Shown here in pieces: positions 284 through 45,920 of a stretch of 64,000 nt of DNA. The notes beneath the pieces are model-generated. The model made no database searches, was not told the origin of the DNA, and saw only the letters and a list, made by a program, of their open reading frames with translations. Position 1 is the first letter of the stretch. Each line of letters begins with the position of its first letter. The DNA comes from a virus (taxonomy: Duplodnaviria; Heunggongvirae; Uroviricota; Caudoviricetes): the IMG/VR virus record IMGVR_UViG_2667527592_000002, one strand, 5' to 3'. The position numbers and the translations under genes were made by a program.

Positions 284-359
284 GGCCCTTTAGCTCAGTG
301 GTTAGAGCAGGCGACTCATAATCGCACGGTCACCGGTTCAAATCCGGTAGGGGCCACCA
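284..359 (+). tRNA. tRNA with CAU anticodon (Met or Ile2/lysidine type)
   Basis: 76 nt cloverleaf read by hand: acceptor GGCCCTT/AGGGGCC, D-arm GCTC-AGTGGTTA-GAGC, anticodon loop CTCATAA, T-arm ACCGG-TTCAAAT-CCGGT, encoded CCA. Confidence 0.9.
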
Positions 360-1781: not shown

Positions 1782-1798
1782 CGTTAGGTATTTAATAT

Positions 1799-1814
1799 TA
1801 GTTTTCTAATATAA
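1799..1814 (+). promoter_or_regulatory. operator-like motif, variant copy (TAGTTTTCTAATATAA)
   Basis: Member of recurring asymmetric motif family; about 80 bp upstream of the 1890 operon. Confidence 0.35.
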
Positions 1815-1889
1815 TCATCTTTTTACCAGTCTATACAGTTTTAACATTCTCATTATCATCCCCTCGGTCATTTCCTGCCCGGGGGATTA

Positions 1890-2282
1890 ATGGAACAAAT
1901 CAGCAGCGCAGAAATTGCGGATATCATGATCAGGGCTGACTGCTATCTGACAGTCACTGAAATTACCACTCTCGCCAAAGAAAAATACCCTCATCTCCAT
2001 GTTTCACGAGTAAGTGTAACTAACATCATTCGTCATTTTGTTCGTTCAAGCAGGGCAATCTGTGAGCTGGATGATCGTGTGTATCCACGAAAATACTGGC
2101 TACATGGTCTGAACGGATATCAGTTCAAGGTGCGCGGGCGCACGCCTGAATACGGTAGCTTACTGGTTAAAAACTGTAGCAGGAAATCAGTCGAACAGGC
2201 GCGAAAAGAGCAACGAGAGCTGGTGGACATGGCGAATAAGCTGTGGAATGCCGCCGTTAAAAAGCGTGGTGTTGCTTTATGA
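1890..2282 (+). CDS. hypothetical protein (130 aa)
   Basis: ORF track; stop overlaps pacA-like start (ATGA). Confidence 0.5.
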   Translation: MEQISSAEIADIMIRADCYLTVTEITTLAKEKYPHLHVSRVSVTNIIRHFVRSSRAICELDDRVYPRKYWLHGLNGYQFKVRGRTPEYGSLLVKNCSRKSVEQARKEQRELVDMANKLWNAAVKKRGVAL

Positions 2283-3643
2283 GTCTGGTTAATTGGGAGG
2301 AGCACCGCGCCCGCTTTATAGCGTTGCGTGAAGAAAAAGGGATCACTGTAAAGGAATACTGTGAGGAGCATGGCCTTAGCTTCAATACAGCCAGAAAGCA
2401 TCTCAATATGAAAAAAAATGAGGTGCGGTCGCAGGTAAAGACAACAAAAAAAAGCACCAAATCACCTGAAAAAAAACGGGCGGGAAGAGCAACAAAAAAG
2501 CTGGAAGAGGGTGCAGAAAAAACAAAATTTACAGAAATTGACAATTCGCAGGGTGCAGGTTCTTTCCGAAGTATGCCAAGAAAGAAAACTTCGGATCATG
2601 AAAGTAATTCCAATAATAACAATGAGATAAAAGAATCTGTCAGGAGATCATTGCGCGAAAAAATGGCGAAAATGATCCCCGAAGAAGATAAAAGCGCCCC
2701 AAAAATTGAGGGATCTTCAGCAATGATCCCTGGCGGTGCTGTGCAACGTGCCACATTGCCCACTACGAATGTGGCTCGCGACATGATGAAGAACGGCGCA
2801 GAAGAACACCTGCGGTTAGCAATTCAAATGGCGCAAGAGCGCGCACTTCAGTATCAAAGCATTGTTGATCAGGAGGCCGAACGTCTACAGGCGGAAATAG
2901 ACGCCTTGGGCGATAAAGAGCCAGAAGGAATGCACCCTGGGCAGCGCCTTCTCGGTCTAATCAGTGACGCGGCCTACTACATGAATGATTTTATCAGTAG
3001 GTTGGCAGCTATATATCAGTCCGAACAAAAGCTGCGACAGGGGGATGAAAAGCTTCGTCAGAGCGCTCGCCAGCAAGCATTCAAAGAGGCTGAGGCCAGA
3101 GAAAAACTCGAATTAGCACGCCTACAGGCCGAACAGCGTGGCAAAGAGATTGAATATCGCATTGGCGCTGACGCACGCGCTGCCAGAGTTATCGCCGCCG
3201 CTATACGTATGCGTGAGCGCGAGGAACTGGATGATATCGGTGTTGCTGAATACATCGAGCGCCAGGGGGTCAGCGTCCCGGCTATCCTCGCGGCGCGCGC
3301 GGCGAAAGCTATCACTCTTCTCGAACCACCTGTTTCTGACGTCAATGATGTTGATGATGAACAGCTGGACAAAGAGGCAAGGGAGTTTGCAACGCTTCAG
3401 GCTAACCATCCGCAATGGCTGGCAGAGCGCCGGGCGGATGTGGCAACCATTGTTGAAGAATTGGGGTGCGGAGATTACGACCGCAATGGCGAGCGTAAAG
3501 CTGGAGAATTCGAGGCCAGCGACGAAGAGCTGGATATTGACCCTTCGGCAACGGCTGAAATTTACGGTGATTATGATGCATCTGATGCAGGGTATGACGC
3601 CGGAGATGATGATATCGCGATAGAACCGCCGGAGGATGATTAA
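2279..3643 (+). CDS. putative terminase small subunit (PacA-like), acidic C-terminus
   Basis: Immediately upstream of and overlapping the large terminase; N-terminal HTH-like segment; internal GATC cluster; assignment by position, not by recognised sequence. Confidence 0.45.
   Translation: MSLVNWEEHRARFIALREEKGITVKEYCEEHGLSFNTARKHLNMKKNEVRSQVKTTKKSTKSPEKKRAGRATKKLEEGAEKTKFTEIDNSQGAGSFRSMPRKKTSDHESNSNNNNEIKESVRRSLREKMAKMIPEEDKSAPKIEGSSAMIPGGAVQRATLPTTNVARDMMKNGAEEHLRLAIQMAQERALQYQSIVDQEAERLQAEIDALGDKEPEGMHPGQRLLGLISDAAYYMNDFISRLAAIYQSEQKLRQGDEKLRQSARQQAFKEAEAREKLELARLQAEQRGKEIEYRIGADARAARVIAAAIRMREREELDDIGVAEYIERQGVSVPAILAARAAKAITLLEPPVSDVNDVDDEQLDKEAREFATLQANHPQWLAERRADVATIVEELGCGDYDRNGERKAGEFEASDEELDIDPSATAEIYGDYDASDAGYDAGDDDIAIEPPEDD
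2594..2728. other. GATC cluster (5 sites in 135 bp), candidate pac-type packaging site
   Basis: GATC at 2594, 2646, 2674, 2712, 2725, mostly as TGATC[CT] hexamers; P1 pac lies within pacA and is built from Dam-methylated TGATC[AG] hexamers. Confidence 0.35.
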
Positions 3644-5151
3644 TGGCTGGCGGGCGCAAGATTAAATGCGTCACCAGCGATCCACGCTGGCGCGATATGG
3701 TAATCAAATACCGCTACAACTTTACCCAGGCTGTTGTCGATATTTTTGGGATGTTCCCCTCCCACCAGCAGCAGCAGATCATTCAGTCAGTGCAGGAAAC
3801 GGGGAGTAGGACGACCGTCACGTCCGGACACGGAACGGGGAAGTCGTCCCTTACCGCGATGTTGCTGTTGATTTTTATGATCCTGTTCCCCGATGCCCGT
3901 GTCATCATTGTTGCTAACAAGATAGGCCAGGTAAAAACAGGCGTATTCAAATACGTTAAACAGTATTGGGCGAATGCAGTTAAGCGTCATGGGTGGTTGC
4001 AGACCTATTTTGTCCTCTCTGACACCATGTTTTATGAGCGCTCCCGTAAGGGGATTTGGGAAGTTCTCTGCAAAGGTTATCGACTCGGCAACGAAGAAGC
4101 GCTGGCGGGGGAACACGCGGCACATTTGCTTCTAATTCTGGACGAAGCATCTGGTATATCTGATAAGGCGATCGGCGTAATGACCGGTGCTCTTACTGAA
4201 GAAGATAACCGGATGTTGATGCTATCCCAGCCAACAAGGCCAAGTGGTTATTTCTACGATTCGCACCATTCTCAAGCAAAAACCCCAGACAACCCGAAAG
4301 GGATCTGGACAGCAATTGTTCTTAACTCGGAAGAATCACCGTTCGTCACACCACAATTCATCAAGCAGAAGCTTCTGGAATATGGCGGGCGCGATTCTAT
4401 TGAGTACATGGTCAAGGTGCTTGGTCAGTTCCCACGAGAAATTAACGGCTATTTGCTTGGTCGTGATGAATGCGATCGCGCTGCTCGCCGCAAGGTGTTG
4501 TTGGAGAAAAACTGGGGATGGGTGGCAACGGCTGACGTTGGTAATGGGCGAGATAAGTCGGTCCTCAACATCTGCAAAGTATCTGGTCACAGGGATAAGC
4601 GGCGCGTTGTTAACTTTAAGGTAATGGAGATGCCTGGCACTATGGACCCATTGGCCTTTGCTGACTTCATATATAACGAATGTACGCCGGAAAAATACCC
4701 GAATATAACAATCGCGGTTGATGCTGATGGTTTTGGTTCTGATACGTGTGCGCAGTTGGTGCGTCGTGGTGCGAACCCGGTACGTATTCGGTGGGGAAAA
4801 CCCATGTTTGCGAACAAAGACAGGGAGCGATTTGTTAATCAGCGTGCCTACGCAAATATTATGGCGCGTGATGCCATAAAGTCAGGGCGTATGCGGATAG
4901 ACAGTGACCCTAAAACGGCAGAGCAAGCGTCAAAAATCCCCTTTTTACTGAATGAAGAAGGGAAAATGGCGATGATGCGCAAAGAGCACATGCGGCAAAA
5001 GCTAAACATCAAATCGCCTGACCGATGGGATACCTACTGCTTCACTATGCTGGTGGACTATGTGCCTGCTAATGAAGATATTGGTGCCGAAATGGCAACT
5101 TTCCGAGATCAGGTTCTGGCGGATATCGAAATGCCGGATCTGGATATATAA
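3643..5151 (+). CDS. terminase large subunit (PacB-like)
   Basis: 502 aa; Walker A SGHGTGKS, Walker B LLLILDEAS, C-terminal acidic nuclease-like region; start overlaps pacA stop. Confidence 0.7.
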   Translation: MAGGRKIKCVTSDPRWRDMVIKYRYNFTQAVVDIFGMFPSHQQQQIIQSVQETGSRTTVTSGHGTGKSSLTAMLLLIFMILFPDARVIIVANKIGQVKTGVFKYVKQYWANAVKRHGWLQTYFVLSDTMFYERSRKGIWEVLCKGYRLGNEEALAGEHAAHLLLILDEASGISDKAIGVMTGALTEEDNRMLMLSQPTRPSGYFYDSHHSQAKTPDNPKGIWTAIVLNSEESPFVTPQFIKQKLLEYGGRDSIEYMVKVLGQFPREINGYLLGRDECDRAARRKVLLEKNWGWVATADVGNGRDKSVLNICKVSGHRDKRRVVNFKVMEMPGTMDPLAFADFIYNECTPEKYPNITIAVDADGFGSDTCAQLVRRGANPVRIRWGKPMFANKDRERFVNQRAYANIMARDAIKSGRMRIDSDPKTAEQASKIPFLLNEEGKMAMMRKEHMRQKLNIKSPDRWDTYCFTMLVDYVPANEDIGAEMATFRDQVLADIEMPDLDI

Positions 5152-5170
5152 AGCCCCGCGATGCGGGGCC
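5152..5170. terminator. hairpin between convergent genes (GCCCCGC-GAT-GCGGGGC)
   Basis: 7-bp GC stem; T/A-rich run follows on the minus strand, so mainly terminates the 5179..6216 transcript. Confidence 0.5.
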
Positions 5171-5178
5171 GGTTGTGA

Positions 5179-6216
5179 TTACCAGAGCTTCGCGGCGTAC
5201 TGCGTTTGGGGGAATGTGTATCCGTAACGTTCTTCGATTGCTTTGCCGTATTTTTTACGAGCTTCATTCAGTTTAATGCCGGTCAGGTCGTCTCCAGAGG
5301 CCATCATTACCTCTAACAATTCCAGATCCATTTTATCCAGCCTTGCCATTGCTTCACGTGATGTACGTATCTTACGCTCAATGATATGGCGAATAGCCGG
5401 ATCGGCATCCTCCAGCATCTTAGCGGATTTCTGCTTAAGGCTTTCATTGCGAATATCGATGTTCCTTAAGATGTACGACTTCGCAACGTAGCTTGGCTGG
5501 TGTTTTTCCAGGTCACGAACACGATATAAGTTAAAATCGCCGAGAAGGCTGCAAGGTACCGATTCGACGCCAGAATAAATTGTAATGCTCCGGCGTTCAC
5601 CAACATTATTGACAACGGGGATCGTTGTCTTCGGTAGTCTTGCGAAAACCAATGCGCCATGTGCGCCAACTCTAAAGCGAGAAAGGGCATTGCTGCCTTC
5701 GATGTTTGTTGTCAGCACAACATCTGTATATGCCTCTTTACGCGCCCGGTAGATCTCGCCTTCAGGCTCAGCTTCAAAGAAGCGCTGTTCTTCTTCAAGA
5801 GCGCCTACGATTTGAGAAAAAACCCTATTTTTCAGGCTTTTCTTTATGATTTTGTCGTATTTTTTGAGCAATTGTTCACGTGTAAATGTACGTGTTGTTG
5901 TAGCGCTTTGCACAACAACATGCGTGCTTTGATTGGTGTCCTCAATGATGAATGGGATCGGAGAATATACAGACTCAACAATGTTCGACGCTTTGCCGTC
6001 GGCATCGCGGCACATGTCAACGAAGGCTTTCCATTCAGCAAGACATTTTTCAGCTTCTTCTAATATGTTTTGGTCATGCGTTAATGCAACATGGCGGAAT
6101 TCCTCGCCAGCATAACTGGTATCATGGAAAACAGAGTTTGCGACCACCAGCTCTTTCCACCGTTCAGCGGTTTGCAGGAACCGTTTGTACTCTTTCTCGA
6201 TCGACTTCTTACTCAT
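5179..6216 (-). CDS. hypothetical protein (345 aa); candidate lysogeny regulator by position
   Basis: ORF track; ATG with AGGA RBS; operator-like motif 16-33 bp upstream; sits between terminase and lox-cre. Confidence 0.55.
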   Translation of the reverse strand: MSKKSIEKEYKRFLQTAERWKELVVANSVFHDTSYAGEEFRHVALTHDQNILEEAEKCLAEWKAFVDMCRDADGKASNIVESVYSPIPFIIEDTNQSTHVVVQSATTTRTFTREQLLKKYDKIIKKSLKNRVFSQIVGALEEEQRFFEAEPEGEIYRARKEAYTDVVLTTNIEGSNALSRFRVGAHGALVFARLPKTTIPVVNNVGERRSITIYSGVESVPCSLLGDFNLYRVRDLEKHQPSYVAKSYILRNIDIRNESLKQKSAKMLEDADPAIRHIIERKIRTSREAMARLDKMDLELLEVMMASGDDLTGIKLNEARKKYGKAIEERYGYTFPQTQYAAKLW

Positions 6217-6231
6217 TATTCCTACTCGATT

Positions 6232-6249
6232 TAGTTTTCTAACATAAAA
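6232..6249 (+). promoter_or_regulatory. operator-like motif (TAGTTTTCTAACATAAAA)
   Basis: Recurring asymmetric motif; overlaps promoter region of 5179..6216. Confidence 0.45.
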
Positions 6250-6425
6250 TTACTATGACAAATTTATGTCGAATAACAGAGTGAGTAAAGGATCGAACTG
6301 TGATTTTTTGTCATCAATTTTAGAAAACCAACCGTAGAAACCACACTTCGCAAATTAAAGACCATGAAGGCAACGTGTTACTGGTCATCATCAATCTATG
6401 ATGGATTTAAAAAAATCGGCATTTT

Positions 6426-6459
6426 ATAACTTTAAATAATTGGCATTATTTAAAGTTAG
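6426..6459. other. lox-like recombination site (13-bp inverted arms, 8-bp spacer)
   Basis: ATAACTTTAAATA-ATTGGCAT-TATTTAAAGTTAG; arms 12/13 complementary and about 10/13 identical to loxP arms; 150 bp upstream of cre-like gene. Confidence 0.7.
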
Positions 6460-6610
6460 GCTATAATCATGTGTAGATGAACAGTGTTGACATCACTGAA
6501 AATACGTGCCTCGAATCAAAGGCTTGTATTTTGAAAATTAACTTATAGCTACCCTGTCATTTTTATATTTTTCGCGTAGCGTCATCTGTATATAGAGGTG
6601 TAATAGTTTC

Positions 6611-7639
6611 ATGGGTGAATTAATTATCTCTGGCAGTTCCGGTGGTTTTCTGCGCAACATTGGCAAAGAGTACCAGGAAGCCGCAGAAAACTTTATGCGG
6701 TTCATGAATGACCAGGGGGCTTATGCGCCGAATACTCTGCGCGACCTCCGGTTGGTGTTTCATTCCTGGGCGCGCTGGTGTCACGCTCGCCAGCTTGCCT
6801 GGTTTCCGATCTCACCAGAAATGGCCCGCGAGTATTTTCTTCAGCTGCATGATGCCGATCTGGCTTCGACCACCATTGATAAGCACTACGCCATGCTGAA
6901 CATGCTGCTTTCGCATTGTGGCCTTCCGCCACTTTCGGATGATAAAAGTGTTTCTCTGGCTATGCGGCGCATCCGGCGCGAAGCAGCAACTGAAAAAGGC
7001 GAACGAACAGGCCAGGCTATACCGCTGCGGTGGGACGATCTGAAACTGCTCGACGTCCTGTTGTCCAGGTCAGAACGGCTGGTGGACCTGCGCAACCGGG
7101 CTTTTCTCTTTGTTGCATACAATACGCTGATGCGTATGTCGGAAATCTCGCGTATTCGTGTAGGAGATCTGGACCAGACAGGTGACACTGTCACGCTACA
7201 TATTTCACACACGAAGACAATAACGACCGCCGCCGGGCTTGATAAGGTGCTTTCCCGTCGCACTACCGCTGTGCTGAATGACTGGCTGGATGTTTCCGGG
7301 CTTCGCGAACATCCTGACGCAGTGCTGTTCCCGCCGATACACCGTAGCAATAAGGCCAGGATCACGACAACGCCCCTTACTGCACCTGCAATGGAGAAAA
7401 TATTCAGCGACGCCTGGGTGTTGCTGAATAAAAGAGATGCTACGCCAAACAAAGGAAGATACCGGACGTGGACCGGGCATAGTGCACGCGTCGGGGCCGC
7501 TATTGATATGGCTGAAAAGCAGGTGTCTATGGTGGAGATCATGCAGGAAGGAACCTGGAAGAAACCGGAAACACTTATGCGGTATCTTCGCCGTGGCGGC
7601 GTGTCTGTGGGGGCTAATAGCCGCCTGATGGATTCGTAA
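6611..7639 (+). CDS. cre: Cre-type tyrosine recombinase
   Basis: 342 aa; long collinear similarity to P1 Cre including GHSARVGAA...W...Y active-site region and NTLMRMSEISRIRVGD block. Confidence 0.9.
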   Translation: MGELIISGSSGGFLRNIGKEYQEAAENFMRFMNDQGAYAPNTLRDLRLVFHSWARWCHARQLAWFPISPEMAREYFLQLHDADLASTTIDKHYAMLNMLLSHCGLPPLSDDKSVSLAMRRIRREAATEKGERTGQAIPLRWDDLKLLDVLLSRSERLVDLRNRAFLFVAYNTLMRMSEISRIRVGDLDQTGDTVTLHISHTKTITTAAGLDKVLSRRTTAVLNDWLDVSGLREHPDAVLFPPIHRSNKARITTTPLTAPAMEKIFSDAWVLLNKRDATPNKGRYRTWTGHSARVGAAIDMAEKQVSMVEIMQEGTWKKPETLMRYLRRGGVSVGANSRLMDS

Positions 7640-7642
7640 ATT

Positions 7643-7658
7643 AAATTTCTAACACATC
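7643..7658 (+). promoter_or_regulatory. operator-like motif (AAATTTCTAACACATC)
   Basis: Recurring motif; just downstream of cre stop, upstream of 7713 operon. Confidence 0.4.
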
Positions 7659-7712: not shown

Positions 7713-8057
7713 TTGCAGAGTCAAATCACGGAATCAAGACGCTTCAAGGTGGATGGTTACACCGTAACCTTCGCCGCTGGTGTTAAGAACAGTCATGCTG
7801 TCGTTGTGTTCGGCATCATGACCGGGCTTGAGGCCGTCCCTGTGTTTACCCTCGAAAAAAACTGGCGAAATCTGGAGGAAGCAGAAAGCTACGTCCGGAA
7901 AGTAACCATCATTGCCGCCGAAAAACTCCTGGCCCACTATCAGGAAAATTATCGCACTATGGTCGAGAAGATTAATCTCGCTTTCACTCGCCCCACTACC
8001 GGCTTTATTGCACCGGATACTAATGCAGGTCGATATCCTGCAAGGGGGCGTCGGTGA
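7713..8057 (+). CDS. hypothetical protein (114 aa)
   Basis: ORF track; TTG start 5 nt after AGGAGG. Confidence 0.45.
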   Translation: MQSQITESRRFKVDGYTVTFAAGVKNSHAVVVFGIMTGLEAVPVFTLEKNWRNLEEAESYVRKVTIIAAEKLLAHYQENYRTMVEKINLAFTRPTTGFIAPDTNAGRYPARGRR

Positions 8058-9719: not shown

Positions 9720-10526
9720 ATGGAAAGCACCAAAACAATTCAATACCGCTTGCGTAATGGCCTGCTGGTGGCTGTTAACGCCGACATGTCACTGCCGTTT
9801 GACACGATTGAACGCACTATCATGACGTATCTCGGCTTTAATGAAGAACTGAATGAAGAGCATGGCGTAGCTATATGGAGTGATGCAGACAGCGGCGTTC
9901 GTCGTTACATCACCGCCAGGGGCAAAGACTACTCTCTGGAAGAACTGTTTGCCCTTGCGCAGTCTTTCGAATGTGTAGCATTAGACCTGTTTAATGATCC
10001 TGCTATAGCGCAACGACTTATACGCGAGCTTGGGCTATCCGTTACACCAATTATCTTTAAAAATGGCAGCCTGACTGGCACATGGCGCGTAGAACGCATC
10101 TCAAACTACCTTCCATATAACCGACAGTTAAATGGAGTAATCTCCGGCGTTAATCAGCCCGTAGCGTGTGAAAATGTAAATCTGGTTGTCGCTGTTTTGG
10201 CAACCGCATGTCGTGTTATCGGTTTGGCTAAACAGGCATTTATTCATTTCCCAAATGGTGCAGAAGGTAGCGCAGAGATTATCGCGTGTGATTTCGAATT
10301 TACCTGGATGCTACGCGAATATCTGGACCAAACAGTGTTCCGCGCCGAAGAACTGGATATGTATATCACGTCAACGATTCCTGATGATGTGCGTGCTGAA
10401 GCAATCGCCACAGCAAGGGCCAAATGCCGTGCGGCGATTGCAGAACAGGCCAAAGAAGAACAGTCCGATGAAGTCGCGGCAGATGTGGAGGCAGAGGTAG
10501 CGGAGGATGCTGATGCTGACGCCTAA
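9720..10526 (+). CDS. hypothetical protein, acidic C-terminus (268 aa)
   Basis: ORF track; GGAG RBS. Confidence 0.5.
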   Translation: MESTKTIQYRLRNGLLVAVNADMSLPFDTIERTIMTYLGFNEELNEEHGVAIWSDADSGVRRYITARGKDYSLEELFALAQSFECVALDLFNDPAIAQRLIRELGLSVTPIIFKNGSLTGTWRVERISNYLPYNRQLNGVISGVNQPVACENVNLVVAVLATACRVIGLAKQAFIHFPNGAEGSAEIIACDFEFTWMLREYLDQTVFRAEELDMYITSTIPDDVRAEAIATARAKCRAAIAEQAKEEQSDEVAADVEAEVAEDADADA

Positions 10527-11613
10527 AAACATCACCGAATTACCAGAGTGGAGAGAGCTGGTAAGCAAATATAGCCATGACTGGGCATTAGCAGCAGAAG
10601 AGTTGATGGGTGTTAAGTTAACCCACCAGCAAAAGCTAATTGTTGAGGCGATTCAACAAAAAGGTTCAGCAGTCAGCGTCACCACTCCTGAAGGGATAGG
10701 CCAAAAGACGGTTATCGCTATAATTAGTATTCTTTATACAATCCTGATGCCTGAGTCTAAAACGGTTATTGTTTCCCCAAAGTTCTATAATTGTCGCAGG
10801 CAAGTTATCCAATACATAAGTACGTATTGGGATAGAGTCAGTAACAGAATCCCATTGCTGGGAGAATATTTTAAAGTCGATGGAAACGGCATCAATCATC
10901 GTTACCGGGAATATTGGGGCTGCGAAATTAAGCCATATCACCGAAATTATGAGGAAGGTTTCGGTGGATATTATGCTGAACATCTTTTAATCATTGTTAC
11001 GGAGGCGGCTCTTGCTGGCGATCGGCTATTCAGCATGTTAAGAGCATCGTTAGTAAGTGACGATTCACGTATACTTTTAATGTCCGCTCCTTCAGAGGAG
11101 GAGCATGGACACTTTTACGATTCCCATCATGGTCGTGCTAAATCAGAAGAAAATCCATGTGGTATTTATACAGCCATCAAGCTGAACGCAGAAGATACCC
11201 CCATTATTTCTCAAGGTTATCTTGATAACATTGCAGAAATATATGGTGGTAAAAACAGCGATTACTACCGTCGTATGGTTCTTGGTGAGTTTCCTGGTAT
11301 TAGGGGGGCTGTTCTTGAATCAGATATGCCGAAGACAATGCGCTTTTCGATGCCTGATGGTAGTGAATGGATAATGCCATTACGAGTGATAGCCCGGCAT
11401 CATGCACAGCACCACGCCAAAAAACATGGCGTTACAACATTGGAGTGGTTGAAATCGCACACCATTCCACTCTTCACTGCAGATCACAATGCTATCGTTG
11501 AGTGGGCAAAAACAATTCCGTGGGAGAATGTTGCTGAATACGCCCACATGCTAAAACCGCCGAAAGACAGGCAAGAAATTAGCTGGCTGACAGCAGAAAA
11601 AATCATTGAGTGA
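10507..11613 (+). CDS. terminase-large-subunit-like ATPase-domain paralogue with degenerate Walker motifs, no nuclease domain
   Basis: 368 aa; collinear blocks shared with 3643..5151 (HLLII.TEA, RILLMS.P, GHFYDSHH, YGG, GEFP); Walker A GIGQKT, Walker B IVTE. Confidence 0.6.
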   Translation: MLMLTPKNITELPEWRELVSKYSHDWALAAEELMGVKLTHQQKLIVEAIQQKGSAVSVTTPEGIGQKTVIAIISILYTILMPESKTVIVSPKFYNCRRQVIQYISTYWDRVSNRIPLLGEYFKVDGNGINHRYREYWGCEIKPYHRNYEEGFGGYYAEHLLIIVTEAALAGDRLFSMLRASLVSDDSRILLMSAPSEEEHGHFYDSHHGRAKSEENPCGIYTAIKLNAEDTPIISQGYLDNIAEIYGGKNSDYYRRMVLGEFPGIRGAVLESDMPKTMRFSMPDGSEWIMPLRVIARHHAQHHAKKHGVTTLEWLKSHTIPLFTADHNAIVEWAKTIPWENVAEYAHMLKPPKDRQEISWLTAEKIIE

Positions 11614-11648
11614 TAGTAGGAAGCCCGCCTGGTTGAGCGGGCTTCTTT

Positions 11649-12029
11649 TCAAATATTGGAACCATATAGTTCACGTAGTTTTTCCGCTACTGAAGATACG
11701 GGGATTTCACCAGTTGCAGCCCCCACCGCAAGTTCCACCAGCACGGGAGAATCATATACCTGTATACCGTTACGGCGTAGAAATAGCAGCGCACTGTTTA
11801 GCGCGGTACGCTTATTGGCATCATTGAATATATGCCCTCTCGCAGTAGCCACCAGGTAGGTTGCGGAGACTTCGAAAAGGTCGGTGATCTCTTCGTAGGC
11901 AACTCTGGCCTGAACTCTCCCGATAATGGCCTCTGCCCTACCCGGATCTGACATTCCCGGCAGGCCGCCGTAGCGGCTTATATTCGCATCATGAAGCGCA
12001 ATAAGTTCTTCCGGTGATATATGCCTCAT
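11649..12029 (-). CDS. doc: Doc toxin (Fic-family kinase), phd-doc addiction module
   Basis: 126 aa, near-identical to P1 Doc as I recall it ([22 protein letters not shown]... [11 protein letters not shown]). Confidence 0.95.
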
Positions 12030-12322: not shown

Positions 12323-12712
12323 TTAAATGACCGGACAATCATCAAACTCCCCACTTCGGGCATCATTGATGACATGAGTGATCACACCAAAAACAGCATT
12401 ACTACCCGTGTAACCATCGTCATCTACTGGTAACGCCTCTTTCTTCCCGGTGCTTAAATCCTCCAGGTGCTGGCGCGGATACTTTCGGTATCTCTTTATG
12501 CGATATTCACCCTCCATAGCGCACACAAGCAGCGAACCATCAACTGGAGTAAGCGAAGAATCAACCACCAGCAAAGCACCCTGCAATATTCCCTCACGGT
12601 GATGGCTGTCTGCCGCCCGCATGAAGTATGTCGCTGATGGATGCCTGATTAGTTGCTGATCAAGAGAAATTCTGCTTTCAACATAGTCCGCCGCAGGAGA
12701 AGGGAAGCCCAT
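12323..12712 (-). CDS. humD: UmuD'-like protein (HumD-like, peptidase S24 fold)
   Basis: FPSPAADYVESRISLDQQLIRHPSATYF resembles UmuD; directly upstream of phd-doc as in P1. Confidence 0.8.
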   Translation of the reverse strand: MGFPSPAADYVESRISLDQQLIRHPSATYFMRAADSHHREGILQGALLVVDSSLTPVDGSLLVCAMEGEYRIKRYRKYPRQHLEDLSTGKKEALPVDDDGYTGSNAVFGVITHVINDARSGEFDDCPVI

Positions 12713-12799
12713 AGCGTTTTCACCTCAATAATACTGTTCATTTATACAGTATACATTAAAGAGACACCTTTGGTGCAAACGCGTTATCGCCGGTCATCA

Positions 12800-18696: not shown

Positions 18697-19692
18697 TCAG
18701 TTATTGAACGTGATCACTCCGCGCTCGATGGCGAAGTCGAAAAGCTGGTTAGCTGCTACGTAAAGGCGTATGCCATGTGCTTTTTCCCATGCCCGGACAT
18801 CGTTTTCTGCGCTTCTGGCGCAGTCATCGCAAAGAGGAACAGCCCAGCGGTCGTGTTCGTTTAACGAGCGGGCGCGGTACATGAATGGGTGATTAACCTT
18901 GCCGCCGCAGCCTACACACGGGCGAGACACCACAAACCGGAGATAAGCCGGGCTTTTTCCGAGTAAGGTTTTTGGACGGCGCATATATAGGAGGCCAGAA
19001 TCTTCATCGACGGACAGATTGACGATCTGCTCTGCGGAAATATCCACCAGCTCGCGGGTACTATGCTCCCAGGTAATATCCGACTCTTTCAGAGTGCCGG
19101 TAGGGATTTCAGTTTTTGGCTGACAAAATGCAATGCGACCAGCTTCATCAGGCAGTTCGTCTTTAAGATTCCGGCGAATGGCCCAAAAGGTGAGTTCAAC
19201 CATGCTCAGATCGCGATCTGGCGGAAGTTTTAACTCGCTGGCAGCCCAGTTCATAATCCAGTTGGCGCGATTCAGTGACAGTTGGTCTTCCAGCTTGCCG
19301 TATCCCTTCATCATGTATTCCGCATCATGCTTCCAGCACAGGCGAACGGCAGAACCGTTATAGAAATGGGTGGTTAACTGGTGGCTGCAATCGCGCTTAT
19401 CATGCGCCTGGCAATCGTGAATGTTGGTGCTAACCCAGTGAACGAGAGAATCCTCACCACCTAACGCGTTAAATACGCGCTCACTTTGAAAAAAGGGTGC
19501 CAGTGACTGGTTGGTAACCAGTGAATAATTCAGGTCAACGACACCATCAGGGGTGTTTTCAGCCTGTTCACGCGGCAATGGGGATATAAGAAAACGACGT
19601 CCTGCGCCGATGTAATTGCTGGTGGGCTTATCTACAGGAAAGACAGCCACACCAGTTTCATTTACGACATATGGGGTGATTATTGCACTCAT
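18697..19692 (-). CDS. hypothetical protein with C-terminal Cys-rich zinc-ribbon-like motif (331 aa)
   Basis: ORF track; CVGCGG ... CDDCA. Confidence 0.5.
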   Translation of the reverse strand: MSAIITPYVVNETGVAVFPVDKPTSNYIGAGRRFLISPLPREQAENTPDGVVDLNYSLVTNQSLAPFFQSERVFNALGGEDSLVHWVSTNIHDCQAHDKRDCSHQLTTHFYNGSAVRLCWKHDAEYMMKGYGKLEDQLSLNRANWIMNWAASELKLPPDRDLSMVELTFWAIRRNLKDELPDEAGRIAFCQPKTEIPTGTLKESDITWEHSTRELVDISAEQIVNLSVDEDSGLLYMRRPKTLLGKSPAYLRFVVSRPCVGCGGKVNHPFMYRARSLNEHDRWAVPLCDDCARSAENDVRAWEKAHGIRLYVAANQLFDFAIERGVITFNN

Positions 19693-19731
19693 AATGCATA
19701 CCGACTCTGTTTTGTTCCGAGTGGTAAAATA

Positions 19732-19750
19732 ATATGTTAGAAAACTAAAA
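19732..19750 (-). promoter_or_regulatory. operator-like motif (minus strand TTTTAGTTTTCTAACATAT)
   Basis: Recurring motif 40-58 bp upstream of 18697..19692 operon. Confidence 0.45.
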
Positions 19751-24332: not shown

Positions 24333-24350
24333 GTTTTGTGTTAGAAAATC
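24333..24350 (-). promoter_or_regulatory. operator-like motif (minus strand GATTTTCTAACACAAAAC)
   Basis: In divergent promoter region between 24299 operon and ref-like gene. Confidence 0.45.
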
Positions 24351-24416
24351 AATTTTGAATATCTAACTATTTTGATCAATCATAGAAAAATCGCTGAAAA
24401 GTAAGAGGCAGCCATC

Positions 24417-24995
24417 ATGCAGAAACAGAGCTATTGGGAGAAACAGAGACAAAAAGCCATGCAAAAATTGGCTGACCCGGCCTGGCGAGAGGAACAAAGG
24501 GCAAAGCGCCTTCAACAAGCTCAACGCCAGCAGCAGCGAGCGAGAGAAAAAGCCGCATCGCCTGAATATCGGCAAAAAAAAATTGAAAAAGCAAAGCAAT
24601 ATGACCAGCGGAGAAAAGAGAAAGCTGTATCCGCTCCGTCCAAAAAAACACGCACGTCACGCGGCCTGAAGGGCAGATCACTCACAGCCGATGAGCGCCG
24701 GATACAGACCGCTATCGGTACTCTCCCCTGCATTGCCTGCCATATTCACGGGCAACATAGCCCAGTAGTATCCCTGCACCATATCTTCGGGAGAACGGCA
24801 GAGAACGCGCATAAATATGTCCTCCCTTTGTGTAAATGGCACCACCAGTACGCAGCGCCAGCCGAGGTCCGAGAACAATATCCCTGGCTGGTCCCTGTTC
24901 ATGCTGATGGAAAAATAGGCGGAAAAGCAGATTTCATACGGCACAATGCCGATGAAATGGCGTTGTATCAGATGGCAATTGAATTGATAAATTAG
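24417..24995 (+). CDS. Ref-like HNH-motif protein with basic disordered N-terminus
   Basis: 192 aa; K/R/Q-rich N-terminal half, C-terminal CIACHIHGQH ... HHIFG ... CKWHH; resembles P1 Ref architecture. Confidence 0.5.
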   Translation: MQKQSYWEKQRQKAMQKLADPAWREEQRAKRLQQAQRQQQRAREKAASPEYRQKKIEKAKQYDQRRKEKAVSAPSKKTRTSRGLKGRSLTADERRIQTAIGTLPCIACHIHGQHSPVVSLHHIFGRTAENAHKYVLPLCKWHHQYAAPAEVREQYPWLVPVHADGKIGGKADFIRHNADEMALYQMAIELIN

Positions 24996-25010
24996 TTTTC
25001 TAACATTTTA
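24993..25010 (+). promoter_or_regulatory. operator-like motif (TAGTTTTCTAACATTTTA)
   Basis: Overlaps stop codon of ref-like gene. Confidence 0.45.
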
Positions 25011-25494: not shown

Positions 25495-25597
25495 AATACT
25501 GACTGTTGCGCCCTGGCATTATCGTGGGGTATATTTCTACGGCACCTTAGAAAAACGGGTGCCGGGATTGGAACCCCGGATAATGCAAAAGGCGACA

Positions 25598-25622
25598 CAG
25601 ACGCCGAAAGCGTCTTTTTTTG
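25598..25622 (+). terminator. rho-independent terminator (GACGC-CGAAA-GCGTC then T7)
   Basis: 5-bp GC-rich stem, 5-nt loop, seven T. Confidence 0.6.
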
Positions 25623-25806
25623 TGTCATGCCATCGCACAGCCATACGTAGCGTTTAGCTCAGAGATCAATGGTAGTGCTGGCTGGGCTGCCGAAAGGCAG
25701 GCCGGTTCCCTTTTGCGCCGGTAGTTCCAACCCAGTCAGTGCTACCGCCATTGAGATTGGAACCTCACGCGGTAGCTCCTTAAATTAGCAAAAGGAGGCT
25801 GCCAAT
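25623..25806 (+). ncRNA. candidate structured regulatory RNA (immI/c4-like position)
   Basis: GAAA-tetraloop hairpin CTGCC-GAAA-GGCAG; repeats CGGTAGTTCC / CGGTAGCTCC; inverted GTTCCAA / TTGGAAC; immediately upstream of icd-like RBS. Confidence 0.25.
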
Positions 25807-28367: not shown

Positions 28368-28582
28368 GTAAACAAAATGAAGTTTTATGTTATAAAAACA
28401 ATTAACTACATCAACATGATTTAGGCCAAATTTCGGTCAAAAAATAAAATCCACAAAAAGTGGTTGACACTATTTTGGAAATCACAAACTACACATAATC
28501 CATCGCGCTAACGGCTCCCGTTGAAGGTTCTTTTGACGATTAACTTTCAGCCGAAGCGCGGTAGGGAGTCATAACGCCAAAG

Positions 28583-35968: not shown

Positions 35969-36010
35969 CATTTGTGTTAGATAATTAACATGCATTTTCT
36001 AACACAAATG
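35969..36010. promoter_or_regulatory. inverted pair of operator-like motifs (13-bp perfect arms CATTTGTGTTAGA / TCTAACACAAATG)
   Basis: Arms 16 bp apart; right arm ends 8 bp before rdgC start. Confidence 0.5.
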
Positions 36011-45900: not shown

Positions 45901-45920
45901 TTTGTGTTAGAAAACTAAAA
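45901..45920 (-). promoter_or_regulatory. operator-like motif (minus strand TTTTAGTTTTCTAACACAAA)
   Basis: Recurring motif between divergent 45889 and 46048 genes. Confidence 0.45.

Follow-up and report, generated by a model that had tools for sequence, protein, structure and literature searches.

The open reading frame between pacB and rox of a D6-like plasmid prophage reads as a single C1-family repressor gene and not as a coi-c1 unit

In phage P1 (NC_005856), the repressor C1 of 283 amino acids (aa) is encoded between pacB and lox/cre, with the gene for the 69-aa protein Coi located directly upstream on the same strand. Coi was described as a C1 inactivator forming a 1:1 complex with C1 and Lxc as a corepressor acting in a ternary complex, both being treated as central to the lysis-lysogeny decision, and 22 asymmetric 17-bp operators were reported for this phage (PMC8546580). 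The counterpart from phage D6 (AAV84948 in AY753669; ASR76322, D6_1, in MF356679) has been annotated as c1 since 2004, and in both D6 records the open reading frame (ORF) is entered under c1 / prophage repressor and described as "similar to P1 C1". Here, a 64,000-nucleotide stretch of viral DNA (IMG/VR record IMGVR_UViG_2667527592_000002), referred to as the window, was analysed with regard to a 345-aa ORF at the c1 position, which an initial annotation had suggested to be a coi-c1-like unit read as one frame, as an internal methionine (Met68) would divide it into 67 and 278 aa. The sizes of P1 Coi and C1 given there are correct, and the internal methionine is indeed present; the idea of a coi-c1 unit was not borne out. 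Instead, the ORF is very likely a single gene, namely that of the c1 master prophage repressor of a D6-type (P1-family) plasmid prophage, translated from the ATG at 6216 as a protein of 345 aa.

The ORF list of the window assigns the reading frame, which starts with ATG, to 5179..6216 on the minus strand; of the range 5179-6252 given initially, the first coordinate thus stands, while the other end has to be moved to 6216, as the remaining 36 nt are upstream DNA. The features of the gene are:

5179..6216, minus strand: c1 gene, 345 aa plus stop; very probably the D6-type C1 prophage repressor, in a single reading frame
5482..6216, minus strand: conserved C1 core (residues 1-245), with a predicted Tus-like alpha/beta fold; includes residues 1-67 (6016-6216)
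5182..5409, minus strand: extension of the C-terminus (residues ~270 to 345) seen only in the D6 subclade; predicted second hairpin arm and three short helices
6013..6015, minus strand: internal ATG (Met68), not a start codon; unconserved, lacking a properly spaced Shine-Dalgarno sequence and located mid-helix
6220..6227, minus strand: Shine-Dalgarno-like purine run GAGTAGGA before the annotated ATG, read directly from the sequence
5152..5170, no strand assigned: GC-rich hairpin separating the converging genes pacB and c1, resembling a terminator on the c1 strand (stem of 8 bp, 7 of them GC pairs, with a T-rich tail behind it)

The gene is flanked by pacB (3643..5151, plus strand) on one side and, on the other, first by a perfect rox site (6427-6458) and then by dre (6611..7639, plus strand), and the initial annotation was right in placing it where P1 carries c1. 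In D6, c1 is likewise flanked by pacB, rox and dre, and the window C1 differs from that of D6 (AAV84948) by one conservative substitution (E302D; 344/345 residues identical). Region 4900-6700 shares 99.3-99.6% identity with phage D6 (AY753669, MF356679), and the remaining window can be aligned colinearly with D6, identity there being 88-98% and some insertions occurring, meaning that the relation of the two genomes is mosaic outside the c1 region. Furthermore, the c1-rox segment is 100% identical to Escherichia coli plasmid NZ_AP018804.1 and is present in at least 139 plasmid records, which stem from Escherichia, Salmonella, Shigella and Enterobacter. Judged from its sequence, the window is therefore a phage D6-like, P1-family plasmid prophage, and its c1 gene is already known; as originally posed, the c1 finding matters little, the gene being contained in at least 139 sequenced plasmids and being free of a coi fusion.

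Homology to P1 C1, which had been left unconfirmed in the initial annotation, was recovered by pairwise and by profile comparison. BLASTP aligned residues 7-237 with residues 8-242 of P1 C1 (E 3e-8, 21% identity), colinear from the N-terminus, and hhalign, comparing eight D6-type with eight P1-type proteins, aligned residues 7-241 with 8-246 (probability 97.5%, E 8.4e-12). PHROG 1678 was matched by the D6-type C1 (E 3.8e-170) and by P1 C1 (2.6e-140), whereby the D6 type spans positions 2-347 of the 347-position profile and P1 C1 only positions 1-280. The Pfam family PF27008 (Phage_P7_repressor_C1) is precomputed on both subfamilies, including a representative 99% identical to the window C1; the local Pfam scan of the ORF was empty, the local Pfam copy being older than PF27008.

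An exhaustive hidden Markov model (HMM) search yielded 133 family representatives at the 50% identity clustering level, and a family alignment was built from 86 full-length members of 247-399 aa. All 86 begin at window residue 1-4, alignment occupancy over residues 1-67 is at least 0.97, and this segment holds three of the eight best-conserved columns of the family, i.e., the near-invariant residues F13, R41 and W62. When searched alone, residues 1-67 matched positions 2-68 of the C1 family PHROG 1678 (E 1e-30) and did not match the Coi family PHROG 2079; BLASTP of the window C1 against Coi likewise returned nothing (best E 29). The exhaustive search also returned short proteins (P0090-P0092) which match C1 residues 1-60 only. 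Being P1 C1 N-termini followed by unrelated sequence, they are probably truncations or assembly junctions and not stand-alone N-terminal genes. The gene order lpa-pacA-pacB-c1 is kept in two related loci, L007 (C1 51% identical) and L008 (44%), where c1 likewise points towards pacB and away from the gene of a cre-like recombinase.

The surplus length of about 60 residues over P1 C1 is located at the opposite end of the protein, where the D6 type possesses a helical extension characterized by the motif RKI..A.EA..L..MD.EL..M..SGD.L...KL..AR..YG..IEE..G.TF. and the P1 type a short basic tail (alignment A1). This extension was found in about 16-22 of the 86 family members, and is matched barely or not at all by other long members (362-399 aa); as it is confined to the D6 subclade and unmatched in these other long proteins, the C1 C-terminus looks like a variable add-on region. 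In the structural model, the C-terminal region forms a long helical hairpin (233-270, 276-307) followed by three short helices, with the predicted local distance difference test (pLDDT) exceeding 90 for helices 233-270, 276-307 and 316-342. The extension did not match Pfam even at E 10 and matched, within PHROG, the tail of the C1 family alone, so that its assignment to a known domain was dismissed. A fused Lxc was considered too and likewise dismissed, no similarity to Lxc being found.

In addition to its position, the upstream region of the gene argues for a repressor. The initial annotation had described an operator-like motif 16-33 bp before the start; this motif does recur and was located at 6231-6248, i.e., 15-32 nt before the ATG. 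With up to two mismatches allowed, TTRNTTTTCTAACAYA occurs at 11 sites in the window as compared to 0.71 ± 0.92 expected from window shuffles, and at 10 sites that are wholly intergenic as compared to 0.12 expected from a first-order model of intergenic DNA, the intergenic set used for this count being crude. All 11 sites lie outside coding sequence, save for a 4-nt overlap at one of them; their neighbouring genes were assigned by way of the D6 annotation:

1798..1815, plus strand: operator-like site 75-92 nt upstream of lpa (1890..2282)
6231..6248, plus strand: proximal operator-like site TTAGTTTTCTAACATAAA, inverted with respect to c1, 15-32 nt upstream of the ATG
6314..6331, minus strand: distal operator-like site TTGGTTTTCTAAAATTGA, oriented in the same sense as c1 and located 98-115 nt before the ATG
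7641..7658, plus strand: operator-like site just after dre, upstream of ORF 7713..8057
19731..19748, minus strand: operator-like site upstream of a pdcB-like gene (18697..19692, minus strand), overlapping the promoter-like TTGATT-17-TATTTT
24335..24352, minus strand: operator-like site in the divergent region beside ref (24417..24995, plus strand); compare P1 Oref
24992..25009, plus strand: operator-like site heading the immI-like region (isrK, C4 RNA, icd, anti-repressor), overlapping the promoter-like TTGAAT-16-TAACAT
28384..28401, minus strand: operator-like site in the divergent simB-like / mat region, overlapping the promoter-like TTGATG-16-TAACAT
35971-35988, minus strand, and 35991-36008, plus strand: two operator-like sites arranged head to head with 2 nt between them, flanked by the homologs of gene 5 and hrdC
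45901..45918, minus strand: operator-like site upstream of the homolog of D6 orf52, adjoining the major capsid gene

As is apparent from this list, several sites overlap promoter-like hexamers, with the TAACAT of the operator serving as candidate -10 element. The pair at 35971-36008 resembles the bivalent overlapping operators annotated in P1, e.g., Oc1ab, and the lpa site is comparable to P1 Olpa, which lies 71-87 nt upstream of lpa in the same orientation. In L007 and L008, the core TTTTCTAACA is found again both in front of c1 and behind the cre-like gene, with position and orientation retained; L007 has it upstream of lpa as well. For the proximal c1 site, the counterpart in L007 is an inverted site 20-35 nt upstream of c1, the core being kept in L008; for the distal site, sense-oriented counterparts were identified about 105-127 nt upstream of c1 in both loci. 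Retention of the motif across C1 proteins of 44-51% identity amounts to phylogenetic footprinting, and the upstream motif, as far as sequence comparison goes, is a genuine operator-like element present in repeated copies.

The annotated P1 operators (ATTGCTCTAATAAATT) have in common with the D6-type sites the invariant core TCTAA and a similar length, and they differ in the rest; within three mismatches, the P1 operator consensus ATTGCTCTAATAAATTT has no match in the 64 kb of the window. Absence of the P1 consensus together with a common core fits a related repressor with a different specificity. This is in line with the NCBIfam equivalog model for P1 C1 (NF041318), which matches the window protein colinearly with 25.4 bits at a cut-off of 500 bits. 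Taking both together, the protein is not a P1 C1 equivalog; by homology, the D6-type C1 is a member of the C1 family (PF27008) that should form a specificity subfamily separate from P1/P7 C1. Common to both subfamilies are the core, the position between pacB and a lox/cre-type module, and asymmetric operators of similar length in many dispersed copies with the same targets (lpa, c1, ref, immI); P1/P7 C1 differs by lacking the C-terminal helical module, by an identity of about 20% and by its operator consensus.

To gain insight into the fold, two models of C1 were computed, one based on 16 sequences (pLDDT 82.8) and one obtained with AlphaFold2 and the 86-sequence alignment (pLDDT 94.9, predicted template modelling score 0.81). 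Foldseek against the Protein Data Bank (PDB) returned only four significant matches, and Tus accounts for every one of them (E from 3e-8 to 3e-6, with a probability of 1.0 over about 273 columns). Tus binds its asymmetric Ter site as a monomer via interdomain beta strands. The C1 model possesses long strands at 99-112 and 155-171, the latter bearing the near-invariant R157 and the invariant R159. For the C1 repressors of P1, P7 and D6, it has long been known that they bind asymmetric operators and have no helix-turn-helix, and no paper linking C1 and Tus was found in the literature searched. E. coli Tus (PDB 1ECR / 4XR0; PF05472, Ter protein) acts in fork arrest and C1 in transcriptional repression, and there is no significant sequence or profile similarity between them; when the PDB was searched by sequence, neither the protein nor the 86-sequence profile gave a significant match, and Tus was not among the hits. 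According to the models, a Tus-like architecture of C1 is probable, and the Tus-like predicted core suggests monomeric recognition of an asymmetric site. A more far-reaching proposal, which we regard as tentative and rather more doubtful than probable, is that the C1 family has a Tus-type fold and reads its operator as a monomer via long interdomain beta strands with an invariant (Y/F)R-x-R motif (R157/R159), while the C-terminal module of the D6 type may provide self-association or looping, or antirepressor docking, offsetting the absence of Coi and Lxc. If this holds true, immunity repressors of phage-plasmids would be linked evolutionarily or architecturally to replication-terminator proteins.

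The partners of C1 known from P1 were searched by tblastn of Coi, ImcA, ImcB and Lxc against the 64 kb window, which gave noise only (best E for Coi 2.1). The spacer between c1 and rox measures 210 bp and contains no small ORF conserved across the window, L007 and L008, ORFs of 20-40 aa being present and unconserved; in L007 and L008, no gene is called between c1 and the recombination module. An immI-like module was identified, consisting of an isrK-like RNA (25542-25620, 62.5 bits) and a C4 antisense RNA (25665-25752, 76.7 bits), which follow the operator-like site at 24992-25009 at a distance of about 550 nt in tandem on the plus strand, and downstream of the C4 RNA, as annotated in D6, of icd and a KilA/Rha-type antirepressor. 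As Coi, ImcA/B and Lxc are lacking, relief of repression presumably proceeds via an immI-type antirepressor under the control of the C4 RNA. A LexA box, as known from the P2coi promoter of P1, was found in the c1-dre interval with one mismatch only (6469-6484), and the number of LexA-box-like matches across the window is not above chance. Separately, the single perfect CTGT-N8-ACAG in the window lies at 12734-12749, within a stretch (12333-12760) that matches the humD region of D6.

With these data at hand, the alternatives to a single repressor gene can be weighed. In the first of them, residues 1-67 would represent a coi-like gene and residues 68-345 a c1-like gene, the two being joined by fusion or readthrough and C1 properly starting at Met68. 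This reading would yield parts near in size to Coi and C1 and would agree with the location of P1 coi; we consider it extremely improbable, as residues 1-67 align with residues 8-65 of P1 C1, match the C1 family without any Coi signal, are N-terminal in all 86 homologs, P1 C1 included, and leave the surplus length at the C-terminus. Met68 itself does not have the properties of a start codon: of the methionines in C1 (residues 1, 68, 267, 290, 296, 304 and 305), the first one is preceded by GAGTAGGA, whereas the context upstream of Met68, tgctgaatggaaagccttcgttgacATG, holds no clear Shine-Dalgarno sequence at a suitable distance; only 3/86 family members have Met in column 68, with L or V taking its place in five of the eight D6-type proteins; and in the AlphaFold2 model the residue lies within helix 49-71. 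The colinear N-terminus, the family-wide start and the unconserved, mid-helix Met68 hence refute the coi-c1 reading, a fusion being ruled out by BLASTP, by the PHROG scan of the isolated N-terminal 67 aa, by tblastn and by the 86-member alignment. Going by this alignment, the C1 fold begins with residues 1-67, and the match of 67/278 aa to the sizes of Coi and C1 is a coincidence; the likeness to P1 Coi is confined to segment size and to the expected place upstream of c1. The same properties of Met68 make it very unlikely that this codon serves as a secondary in-frame start of the c1 gene, giving rise to a truncated isoform that modulates the full-length repressor and thereby exerts a Coi-like function without homology. 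Such an isoform could use the in-frame ATG that is present, would have a precedent in the in-frame nested products of P1 immunity (Ant1/Ant2; PMC8546580) and might substitute for Coi and Lxc, which are absent from the element; yet the truncation would remove two helices and a beta hairpin, which together bear F13, R41 and W62, and the product would probably misfold.

A different objection concerns not the gene but its role, as a C1 homolog might mainly serve as a polar roadblock of replication forks or transcription, or in plasmid maintenance, and not in repression. Tus as sole structural match and the asymmetric, oriented sites would be in agreement with this; it is nevertheless judged to be quite improbable, since the sites are all located at the 5' ends of genes that are controlled by C1 in P1 (lpa, c1, ref, immI), several of them overlapping promoter-like hexamers, and since the homologous P1 C1 is an established repressor (PMC8546580). 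Reading the ORF as a single C1 repressor gene with a Tus-like core is itself met by several points that weigh against it: the protein shares no more than about 20% identity with P1 C1, its equivalog score of 25 bits being far from the 500-bit cut-off; the structural matches to Tus have TM-scores of only 0.31-0.37 with high rmsd; hhalign yields no significant relation between the C1 family and Tus (probability 11%, P 0.0026, C1 86-195 to Tus 146-267), the Tus profile being shallow, with homologs at least 81% identical among the matches listed; and the promoter predictions around the sites are weak consensus matches.

The mechanism that we suggest for the single c1 gene assumes that residues 1-245 would constitute the conserved DNA-binding core and residues ~270-345 a lineage-specific helical extension. 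Here, a single polypeptide is expected to bind an asymmetric operator of 16-18 bp (consensus TTRNTTTTCTAACAYAAA) which overlaps or abuts promoters, and thus may shut off the late-gene activator lpa (and hence the late genes), the immI-like antirepressor region, ref, the mat/simB region and other early functions. The two oppositely oriented sites upstream of c1 would allow for autoregulation, and as the operator differs from that of P1 outside the core TCTAA, the element should possess a distinct immunity specificity. Without Coi, ImcA/B and Lxc, control would presumably be exerted through the C4 RNA/antirepressor module and perhaps also through the additional C-terminal module, which, speculatively, might mediate self-association, looping between paired sites or partner binding. 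The D6 lineage would accordingly run a P1-style circuit without Coi or Lxc. The operator consensus and site map of the D6 type should make the heteroimmunity and the regulons of D6-like phage-plasmids from E. coli, Salmonella and Shigella easier to predict, and the Tus-like fold offers a testable structural explanation for asymmetric-site recognition by C1 repressors.

Some further loci were noted beside the c1 region. The operator-like site located after dre has counterparts after the cre-like gene in L007 and L008, and the recombination sites of these two loci differ: in L007, the site (~3738-3770) is identical to D6 rox, while L008 carries a variant palindromic site TAACTTTAGATAACTCCCATTATCTAAAGTTA (~3735-3770) together with a more diverged recombinase and C1. 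The L008 recombinase and its variant site may represent a new Dre-like recombinase/target pair. Close to one end of the window, a tRNA-Met gene with CAT anticodon is found (284-359, plus strand). Finally, the window encodes a 368-aa paralog (10507-11613, plus strand) of the N-terminal ATPase half of the large terminase PacB (34% identity over 269 aa, E 1e-52), located in a stretch of ~1.2 kb (about 10484-11691) without a D6 match. The paralog lacks the C-terminal ~230 residues of PacB and has no Pfam match, and the Walker-type sequences GHGTGKS and LLILDEA of PacB are changed to PEGIGQK and LLIIVTEA; a degenerate or decoy terminase could be encoded here.

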